DNA of 28,225 nucleotides, taken from a virus (lineage: Duplodnaviria; Heunggongvirae; Uroviricota; Caudoviricetes). The stretch is taken from IMG/VR virus record IMGVR_UViG_2526164619_000012, positions 1 to 28,225 of that record; one strand, 5' to 3'. A program made the position numbers and the translations under genes. Within the stretch, counting starts at the first letter, position 1. Each line of letters begins with the position of its first letter. This document shows, one piece after another, positions 27,501 to 28,225 of the stretch. A model generated the notes under the pieces. It saw only the letters and a program-made list of their open reading frames with translations. It did no database searches and was not told the origin of the DNA.

Positions 27501-27545
27501 AAAATAAAAACTTGCAAAATCAATTGGTTTACCTTTAATCCCTGT
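27501..27545. other. Approximate prophage-host junction (att) inside the 5' end of mlrA
   Basis: MlrA-like coding sequence begins abruptly at about 27541 (PVTLRAWQRRYGLLKPQRTDGGHRL...); upstream sequence encodes only a partial mimic (SIGLPLI) with no start codon. Confidence 0.4.
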
Positions 27546-28225
27546 CACGTTACGCGCGTGGCAGAGGCGTTACGGGTTGCTGAAACCGCAACGGACAGAC
27601 GGCGGTCATCGACTGTTCAACGATGCCGATATTGACCGGATCCGCGAGATCAAACGCTGGATCGACAACGGCGTGCAGGTCAGCAAAGTTAAAATGCTGC
27701 TCAGTAATGAAAATGTTGATGTGCAGAACGGCTGGCGCGATCAGCAAGAAACATTACTGACCTACCTGCAAAGCGGCAATCTGCATAGCCTGCGAACGTG
27801 GATCAAAGAGCGCGGTCAGGATTACCCCGCCCAGACACTCACCACACATCTGTTTATTCCTCTGCGCCGACGGCTTCAGTGCCAACAACCGACTCTCCAG
27901 GCGCTGCTGGCGATCCTCGACGGCGTACTGATCAACTACATCGCCATTTGTCTGGCTTCGGCACGTAGAAAACAGGGTAAAGATGCGCTGGTGGTTGGCT
28001 GGAATATTCAGGATACCACCCGTCTGTGGCTGGAGGGCTGGATTGCCAGTCAACAAGGATGGCGCATTGATGTCCTCGCCCACTCGGCTCAATCAACTAC
28101 GCCCTGAACTATTCGAAGGCCGTACATTGCTGGTGTGGCGCGGTGAAAATCGAACCTCCGCCCAACAGCAGCAACTCACCAGTTGGCAAGAACAAGGCCA
28201 TGATATTTTCCCACTCGGCATTTAA
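27541..28225 (+). pseudogene. mlrA: MlrA (YehV) MerR-family regulator of csgD, 5'-truncated by the prophage and carrying a frameshift near its 3' end
   Basis: ...LLKPQRTDGGHRLFNDADIDRIREIKRWIDNGVQVSKVKMLL... continues to ...WQEQGHDIFPLGI* at 28225 only after a frame change near 28086-28091. The first ~16 codons and the native start are missing. Confidence 0.85.

Follow-up and report, generated by a model that had tools for sequence, protein, structure and literature searches.

Curli and cellulose are under the control of the master switch csgD, which is activated by MlrA, and disruption of mlrA by a prophage is an established reason why most isolates of Escherichia coli O157:H7 form biofilm poorly. 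Occupation of the yehV/mlrA site by prophages, and its effect on curli, is well documented (PMC3874044, PMC3530523, PMC5931665). In STEC, a prophage in the proximal part of mlrA abolishes mlrA expression and curli, and mlrA supplied in trans restored curli and Congo-red binding in 2 of 4 insertion strains (PMC3874044). In the record of the Stx1 prophage VT1-Sakai, a "truncated YehV" is annotated after a 20-bp attachment site. A second type of prophage at this site carries ipaH: in enteroinvasive E. coli (EIEC) CFSAN029787, it lies between a 66-bp mlrA 5′ fragment beside btsS and the 3′ part of mlrA. For an ipaH prophage at mlrA in Shigella we found no paper, and the ipaH classification paper PMC9046306 is without a description of the mlrA locus. 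The phenomenon itself is already known; the junction is a standard one, and the EIEC and Shigella sequences are public.

We analyzed a stretch of 28,225 bases, referred to here as the window, which is the first part of draft contig AKMY01000052.1 of Shigella flexneri K-315 (assembly GCA_000268165.1; a strain from Bangladesh according to the strain table of PMC6397287). From position 17577 to its end at 28225, the window matches that record without a difference, and the 176-amino-acid (aa) product of the open reading frame (ORF) at 27577-28107 has an exact match on it with the same coordinates. The GenBank entry of this protein, EIQ20635.1, is named [quoted passage not shown] On the 3′ side of mlrA, yohO-yehWXY-osmF follow in the same order as in E. 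coli K-12. We read the locus as the attL end of a lambdoid prophage in mlrA that was later decayed by insertion sequences (IS) and frameshifted, and we assign this reading a probability of about 0.93.

Attachment site and integrase gene

The 3′ remnant of mlrA (yehV) occupies positions 27541-28225 (+) and comprises codons 17 to 243 of 243, with a +1 frameshift; the window ends at the native stop codon. In an alignment with mlrA of K-12 (732 nucleotides [nt], 243 codons; L008:3867-4598), homology begins at 27541 with codon Pro17, and the two sequences differ by 6 substitutions and 1 insertion in 685 nt. The 48 nt that encode the first 16 codons, MALYTIGEVALLCDIN, are absent, with phage DNA in their place. 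The preliminary description, made from the window sequence alone, had an MlrA frame that starts abruptly at about 27541 without a start codon, and this was confirmed. It had also proposed alignment with an uninterrupted mlrA; with the K-12 gene, this defined both the missing codons, 1 to 16, and a 20-bp att core.

When K-12 attB, attP of phage phi330, the far junction of the EIEC prophage, and the junction in the window were aligned, the only stretch that all four had in common was the core, CCTGTCACGTTACGCGCGTG (27541-27560, +). It corresponds to codons 17 to 23 of mlrA. The 20-bp attachment site annotated in the VT1-Sakai record starts and ends one base later, which places it at 27542-27561 of the window, and the integrase-proximal end is labeled attL in another phage record. 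In the record of vB_EcoS_phi330 (PV189401.1; L010, ~1745-1790), the core is found twice in tandem, CCTGTCACGTTACGCGCGTG CCTGTCACGTTACGCGCGTG, which may be an artifact of rebuilding the phage from prophage ends.

The phage arm of attL, from the int stop codon to the core, spans 27503-27540 (+). These 38 nt, the core, and the start of the mlrA remnant are base-for-base the same in EIEC CFSAN029787 and in E. coli ECMA0423, and the arm has 3 differences from that of VT1-Sakai. Among species-representative genomes, the exact 44-nt junction of phage arm, core, and mlrA is found in none beyond one E. coli record, that of ECMA0423 (CP178302.1; L011:4039-4082). The same int-mlrA junction is present in 458 of 5426 complete E. 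coli genomes. Given the identity of the junction, the attachment site annotated for VT1-Sakai, and the frequency of the junction in E. coli, we concluded that this is the classical yehV/mlrA site and that integration was by Int-mediated site-specific recombination. The junction, the core, and the VT1-Sakai annotation thus agree with the preliminary description, which had placed a prophage inside mlrA at a known integration site.

Directly upstream of the arm lies the 3′ remnant of a tyrosine integrase gene (27314-27502, +), which reads toward the att junction and retains the last 62 of 428 codons plus the stop, as determined from DNA and protein alignments. The encoded fragment is identical to residues 367 to 428 of VT1-Sakai Int at 61 of 62 positions. 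The first 366 integrase codons are absent; a DNA alignment with int of CFSAN029787 puts the breakpoint at an IS600 element (IS3 family; 26050-27313, −; 1264 bp) that truncates int. This element has 27-nt terminal inverted repeats at 26050-26076 and 27287-27313 and two ORFs of 100 aa (orfA, 26947-27249) and 268 aa (orfB, 26105-26911) with the Pfam domains HTH_Tnp_1 and rve, and it is 99+% identical to copies on Shigella plasmids annotated "IS3-like element IS600 family transposase." The junction of IS600 with int reads GGCTACCTCA|GCATGCTGG.

The two flanks of IS600 are unrelated, with a DUF1737-region gene on the left and the int 3′ end on the right. A simple insertion of IS600 into int was considered and disfavored: when the flanks were joined in silico, they were contiguous in 0 of 5426 E. 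coli genomes. IS600 therefore probably marks a deletion or recombination junction. The trinucleotide GCA is found on both sides of the element (26047-26049 and 27314-27316) and resembles a 3-bp target duplication; this match may be due to chance. No xis was found in the window. With int cut to 62 codons and xis lacking, the prophage would have no intact excision machinery of its own there. Another prophage of the genome may supply an integrase or excisionase in trans, and the split in mlrA is probably permanent.

Content and rearrangement of the prophage

The rest of the degraded, ipaH-bearing lambdoid prophage fills positions 1-26049, which we mapped by blastn against the 45-kb EIEC prophage and annotated with NCBIfam, Pfam, and tRNA/Rfam scans. 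The window, like the contig, starts inside an ipaH gene, of which the 3′ part remains (1-885, +; NCBIfam IpaH_Shig, E=6e-171). The product of ipaH is an E3 ubiquitin ligase effector of the type III secretion system, and ipaH is the cargo gene of this prophage. The break in the contig at ipaH probably reflects the multicopy nature of this gene. Because the contig begins inside ipaH, the far prophage end lies outside the window, along with the junction that carries the mlrA 5′ fragment; the equivalent junction in CFSAN029787 is ~2.7 kb beyond the window start. That junction is expected next to btsS and should be recognizable by the other phage arm, ...CCTGTCACGTTACGCGCGTGACGCAACATTTT..., and by the junction query ATGGCGCTTTACACAATTGGTGAAGTGGCGTTGCTTTGTGATATTAAYCCTGTCACGTTACGCGCGTGACGCAACATTTT. 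By analogy with relatives in which both junctions are seen, the integration was probably two-ended rather than a one-sided rearrangement.

The best relatives of positions 1-15964 are ipaH-carrying prophages of enteroinvasive E. coli. A tail module on the minus strand extends to ~17.3 kb. The ipaH and tail genes at 1-8827 and 11117-15964 are collinear with the EIEC prophage at 97-99% identity, and the block between them (8827-11116), with an IS1 at 9100-9867, is inverted. This IS1 sits in the tail tape-measure gene, and matches to 13041-13049 of the EIEC reference locus (L012) occur both to its left and to its right. Within the block, the plus strand encodes the C terminus of the tape-measure protein, tail protein L, and a tail protein of 109 aa, whereas the neighboring tail genes are all on the minus strand.

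Two further IS1 copies, at 17334-18102 (−) and 23543-24311 (+), form an inverted pair around a segment with the replication, RusA, and Q genes. Compared with the EIEC prophage, the replication module (18170-21861), located between these two copies, has the opposite orientation, which is what recombination between IS1 copies in inverted orientation would produce. It is followed by the RusA and Q genes (21839-23031; Q antiterminator, 22210-23031). Two segments are without a counterpart in the EIEC mlrA prophage: 15965-17333, with head-tail and tail genes, and 21862-23543, with RusA and a Q antiterminator that has 273 aa where the Q of EIEC has 126 aa. Mosaic exchange with other lambdoid prophages is indicated by these two segments. 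The window copy lacks the head, packaging, lysis, and early-left genes, xis, and the first 366 int codons.

In Stx phages, tRNA genes stand ahead of stx at a position downstream of Q. In the window, genes for tRNA-Met (CAT; 23175-23250, +) and tRNA-Arg (TCT; 23351-23427, +), both identified by tRNA scan, lie directly 3′ of Q, and an IS1 comes next. Downstream of Q there are thus the two tRNAs, the IS1, DUF3927, an IraM-like gene, and DUF1737; no stx1AB operon was found there. No toxin domain (Pfam RIP or SLT_beta) was found among the genes called in 17577-28225; positions 1-17333 hold ipaH, tail genes, and IS1, and stx was not detected in the window. The prophage may have carried stx in the past and later lost it by deletion. 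The Stx1 phage of O157:H7 was rejected as the source of this DNA: matches in E. coli reach no more than 99.2% identity, the exact protein match leads to S. flexneri K-315, and a stx-type domain was not found while ipaH is present. Hence, the Stx1/O157:H7 context in the preliminary description held for the yehV/mlrA att site of VT1-Sakai but not for the host. Its comparison with Stx1 phages likewise applies to the integrase/att module, which is common to both, and not to the cargo, which is ipaH, with stx undetected.

The prophage remnant also contains a full-length match to the sRNA family STnc100 (24901-25090, +; 132 bits), which is adjoined by the gene for an IraM-like anti-adaptor protein (25116-25451, −; NCBIfam PRK09919, E=5e-48). 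Proteins of the IraM type stabilize RpoS, so the prophage remnant that kills mlrA also bears a potential, IraM-like RpoS modulator.

The truncated and frameshifted mlrA remnant

The mlrA frame is open for 11 codons into the phage arm: upstream of Pro17 the translation reads, after an in-frame TAA at 27505-27507, K-L-A-K-S-I-G-L-P-L-I. Between this TAA and position 27541 there is no in-frame ATG, GTG, or TTG. The first canonical in-frame start, from the sequence and the ORF list, is a TTG at 27577, which is codon Leu29. An intact in-frame start codon and helix-turn-helix (HTH) just upstream, which would have argued against truncation, were looked for and not found. We found no promoter-like site on the plus strand within 27200-27700, and Rfam and tRNA scans of 27314-28225 found nothing.

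In K-12 MlrA, the Pfam MerR_1 domain covers residues 4 to 72 (profile positions 1 to 69). In the window, the MerR_1 match begins at profile position 16, and the N-terminal HTH is therefore incomplete. Among solved structures, the nearest relatives are CarH and other MerR-type HTH proteins, whose alignment with MlrA begins at its residue 3. Given the established MerR fold, we concluded that the lost residues include the first HTH helix. The predicted loss of part of the MerR-type N terminus is thus borne out, in that MerR_1 profile positions 1 to 15 are removed. The MlrA_helical domain is complete in the window fragment.

The phage arm had been described as partly mimicking the missing N terminus. 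There is a likeness between IGLPLI-PVTL and the native IGEVALLCDIN-PVTL, and the arm and the lost mlrA 5′ end have CAATTGGT and TTAATC in common. The likeness is weak and not conserved: the longest shared word, 8 nt, was reached in 56 of 2000 shuffles and is thus marginal, and VT1-Sakai and phi330 carry CAATTAGT in place of the mimicking sequence. Functional rescue by the phage arm was rejected on these grounds, the similarity being marginal and not kept in other phages at this att site. There is no evidence that it has a function.

The remnant carries a second lesion, an extra G at 28086-28087 (+), where GG replaces the single G of every mlrA compared; CTCGCT becomes CTCGGCT relative to both K-12 and EIEC CFSAN029787. 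This +1 insertion causes a frameshift that ends ORF 27577-28107 at a premature TGA (28105-28107, +). The native last 45 codons plus the stop (28088-28225, +), which encode the second half of MlrA_C, are now in the +1 frame. Accordingly, the Pfam match to MlrA_C is split across two frames, with profile positions 1 to 42 in one and 38 to 77 in the other (E=4.5e-11 for the second), and the out-of-frame end of mlrA is annotated as a separate 51-aa gene in public assemblies. These data agree with the frameshift that the preliminary description had located near 28086-28091, with about 45 final codons out of frame. The extra G recurs, in an identical 685-bp sequence with 0 mismatches, on four other contigs (L004-L007), one of them from a second NCBI assembly and three from Logan assemblies of public runs, so the frameshift did not disappear in other sequence. 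The 176-aa frameshifted product is recorded on 6 contigs. The extra G is absent from complete E. coli genomes, where all 5395 matching records (5393 genomes) differ from a 60-nt query that spans it. The frameshift is specific to this lineage.

Two missense changes relative to K-12 and CFSAN029787 are also lineage specific: K159R (AAA to AGA; 27968, +) and C216R (TGC to CGC; 28139, +), the latter in the out-of-frame part. Among 16 strains, MlrA has been found to have one variable residue only (PMC3874044). K159R, C216R, and the frameshift fit neutral decay after inactivation, and the frameshift would be later than the phage insertion.

Three other explanations bear on these observations. The first is that the extra G is a mistake of sequencing or assembly and that the mlrA 3′ part is otherwise intact; the assembly is a draft from 2012, the change lengthens a G run by a single base, and the extra G is absent from all 5393 matching E. 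coli genomes. This is very improbable and already largely refuted, because the four other contigs share the exact 685 bp, with the two missense changes as well as the extra G, and because 6 contigs record the 176-aa product. An IS-mediated rearrangement or deletion, rather than site-specific integration, might instead have put an integrase fragment beside a truncated mlrA; the surrounding prophage is heavily reshuffled by IS1 and IS600, and the other junction is outside the window. The int stop codon, arm, core, and mlrA nevertheless stand exactly as in intact E. coli prophages, the position of the junction agrees with the VT1-Sakai att annotation, and the nearest IS end is 227 bp from the core. 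We give this explanation almost no credence, as it is already contradicted by the identity of the junction.

The remaining explanation concerns expression. In RefSeq, the NCBI annotation pipeline (PGAP) reports an intact 233-aa MlrA, WP_029208330.1, with an ATT start in the phage arm (L001:3223-3924 of CFSAN029787, equivalent to window 27523-28225); the top 30 matches all bear an mlrA product name, and several 233-aa versions are found in the protein cluster. Taken at face value, this "HTH-type transcriptional regulator MlrA" of prophage-bearing E. coli, together with the 11 open codons of the arm, would mean that the phage supplies a substitute N terminus and a noncanonical start, that a shortened MlrA is made, and that the insertion is functionally neutral. 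Such an outcome is extremely unlikely: in K-315 the product would be cut short by the frameshift anyway, the ATT at 27523 has no Shine-Dalgarno-like sequence before it, the upstream DNA is without a promoter-like site, HTH helix 1 is missing, and the sequence of the arm differs in VT1-Sakai. Moreover, STEC strains with the insertion do not express mlrA, and in two of them a copy of mlrA in trans gave complementation (PMC3874044). In E. coli, whose equivalent fragment is not frameshifted, the annotation formally allows for some translation. We regard the 233-aa ATT-start annotation as a homology-driven artifact; it and the GenBank name "YcgE" for the K-315 protein are likely both misannotations. 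For databases, the issue is that a prophage-split mlrA is called as an intact 233-aa ATT-start protein in hundreds of RefSeq genomes.

Proposed course of events and comparison with known systems

We propose that recombination by a tyrosine integrase put a lambdoid prophage into the 20-bp core within codons 17 to 23 of mlrA in a S. flexneri lineage. Integration would have parted codons 17 to 243 from the promoter, the ribosome-binding site, the start codon, and the first 16 codons, including HTH helix 1, with the native promoter and start remaining at the other prophage end, and after this separation a DNA-binding MlrA would no longer be made. The prophage would then have decayed, IS600 taking the place of all that lay upstream of the last 62 integrase codons and IS1 copies inverting and deleting modules, while the orphaned mlrA would have drifted as a pseudogene and acquired +1 G and two replacements in an otherwise near-invariant protein. 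The order of these events is inferred. Since the remnant is off its promoter and start, lacks the first HTH helix, and is frameshifted, mlrA would be inactivated in three ways. The locus is accordingly predicted not to be expressed and csgD to go without activation by MlrA. A curli phenotype of K-315 is predicted by analogy with the work on STEC; the csg locus lies outside the window.

The window adds an example of the loss of environmental-persistence functions by Shigella, here by way of an ipaH-carrying relative of the Stx1 phage. The only, and mildly, interesting angle is that stx1 and ipaH phages with a common integrase/att module destroy the same biofilm regulator. It is possible, but we consider it doubtful, that the mlrA att site is a shared landing pad for pathotype cargo phages that use one integrase/att module, with stx1 in EHEC and ipaH in EIEC and Shigella. 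If so, gain of an effector or toxin and loss of the curli/biofilm activator would occur in a single step, convergent selection as a pathoadaptive loss would become possible, and the later frameshift and IS600-cut int would represent the stage of fixation in Shigella.

The closest described system by attachment site is the Stx1 prophage Sp15/VT1-Sakai (and CP-933V) at yehV/mlrA of O157:H7. Its att core and position in mlrA are the same as in the window, the integrases share 61 of 62 aa over the surviving part, and the DNA from int to mlrA is 98% identical at the junction. By analogy, the expected loss of MlrA-dependent csgD activation and curli would also be the same (PMC3874044). Unlike VT1-Sakai, the window copy has ipaH as its cargo, no detected stx operon, and S. 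flexneri as its host. IS600 has cut its integrase gene, and it is without head, packaging, lysis, and early-left genes; its mlrA has the additional frameshift and the two missense changes.

By gene content, the nearest system is the ~45-kb ipaH lambdoid prophage of EIEC CFSAN029787 (NZ_CP011416.1, 362,069-409,103), which likewise splits mlrA. The ipaH, tail fiber, lom, J, tail, and replication genes and the int 3′ end are 97-99.8% identical between the two, ipaH and the tail genes have the same order and orientation relative to mlrA, and attL is identical. The EIEC prophage appears to be complete: both junctions are there, int and xis are intact, and head, terminase, and lysis genes are present. 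In contrast, the window copy shows a net loss of ~16 kb, three IS1 elements and one IS600, two inverted segments, a different Q/RusA module, and a frameshifted mlrA.

A third comparison is with IS-driven pseudogene decay, a general phenomenon in Shigella (PMC8072062). The window resembles this pattern, with inversions, deletions, and gene truncation by several IS1 and IS600 copies and with a regulator of an environmental lifestyle that would be inactivated and then gather further lesions. It differs from general IS decay in that the primary lesion in mlrA is the integration of a phage, whereas the IS elements act on the prophage and its integrase gene.
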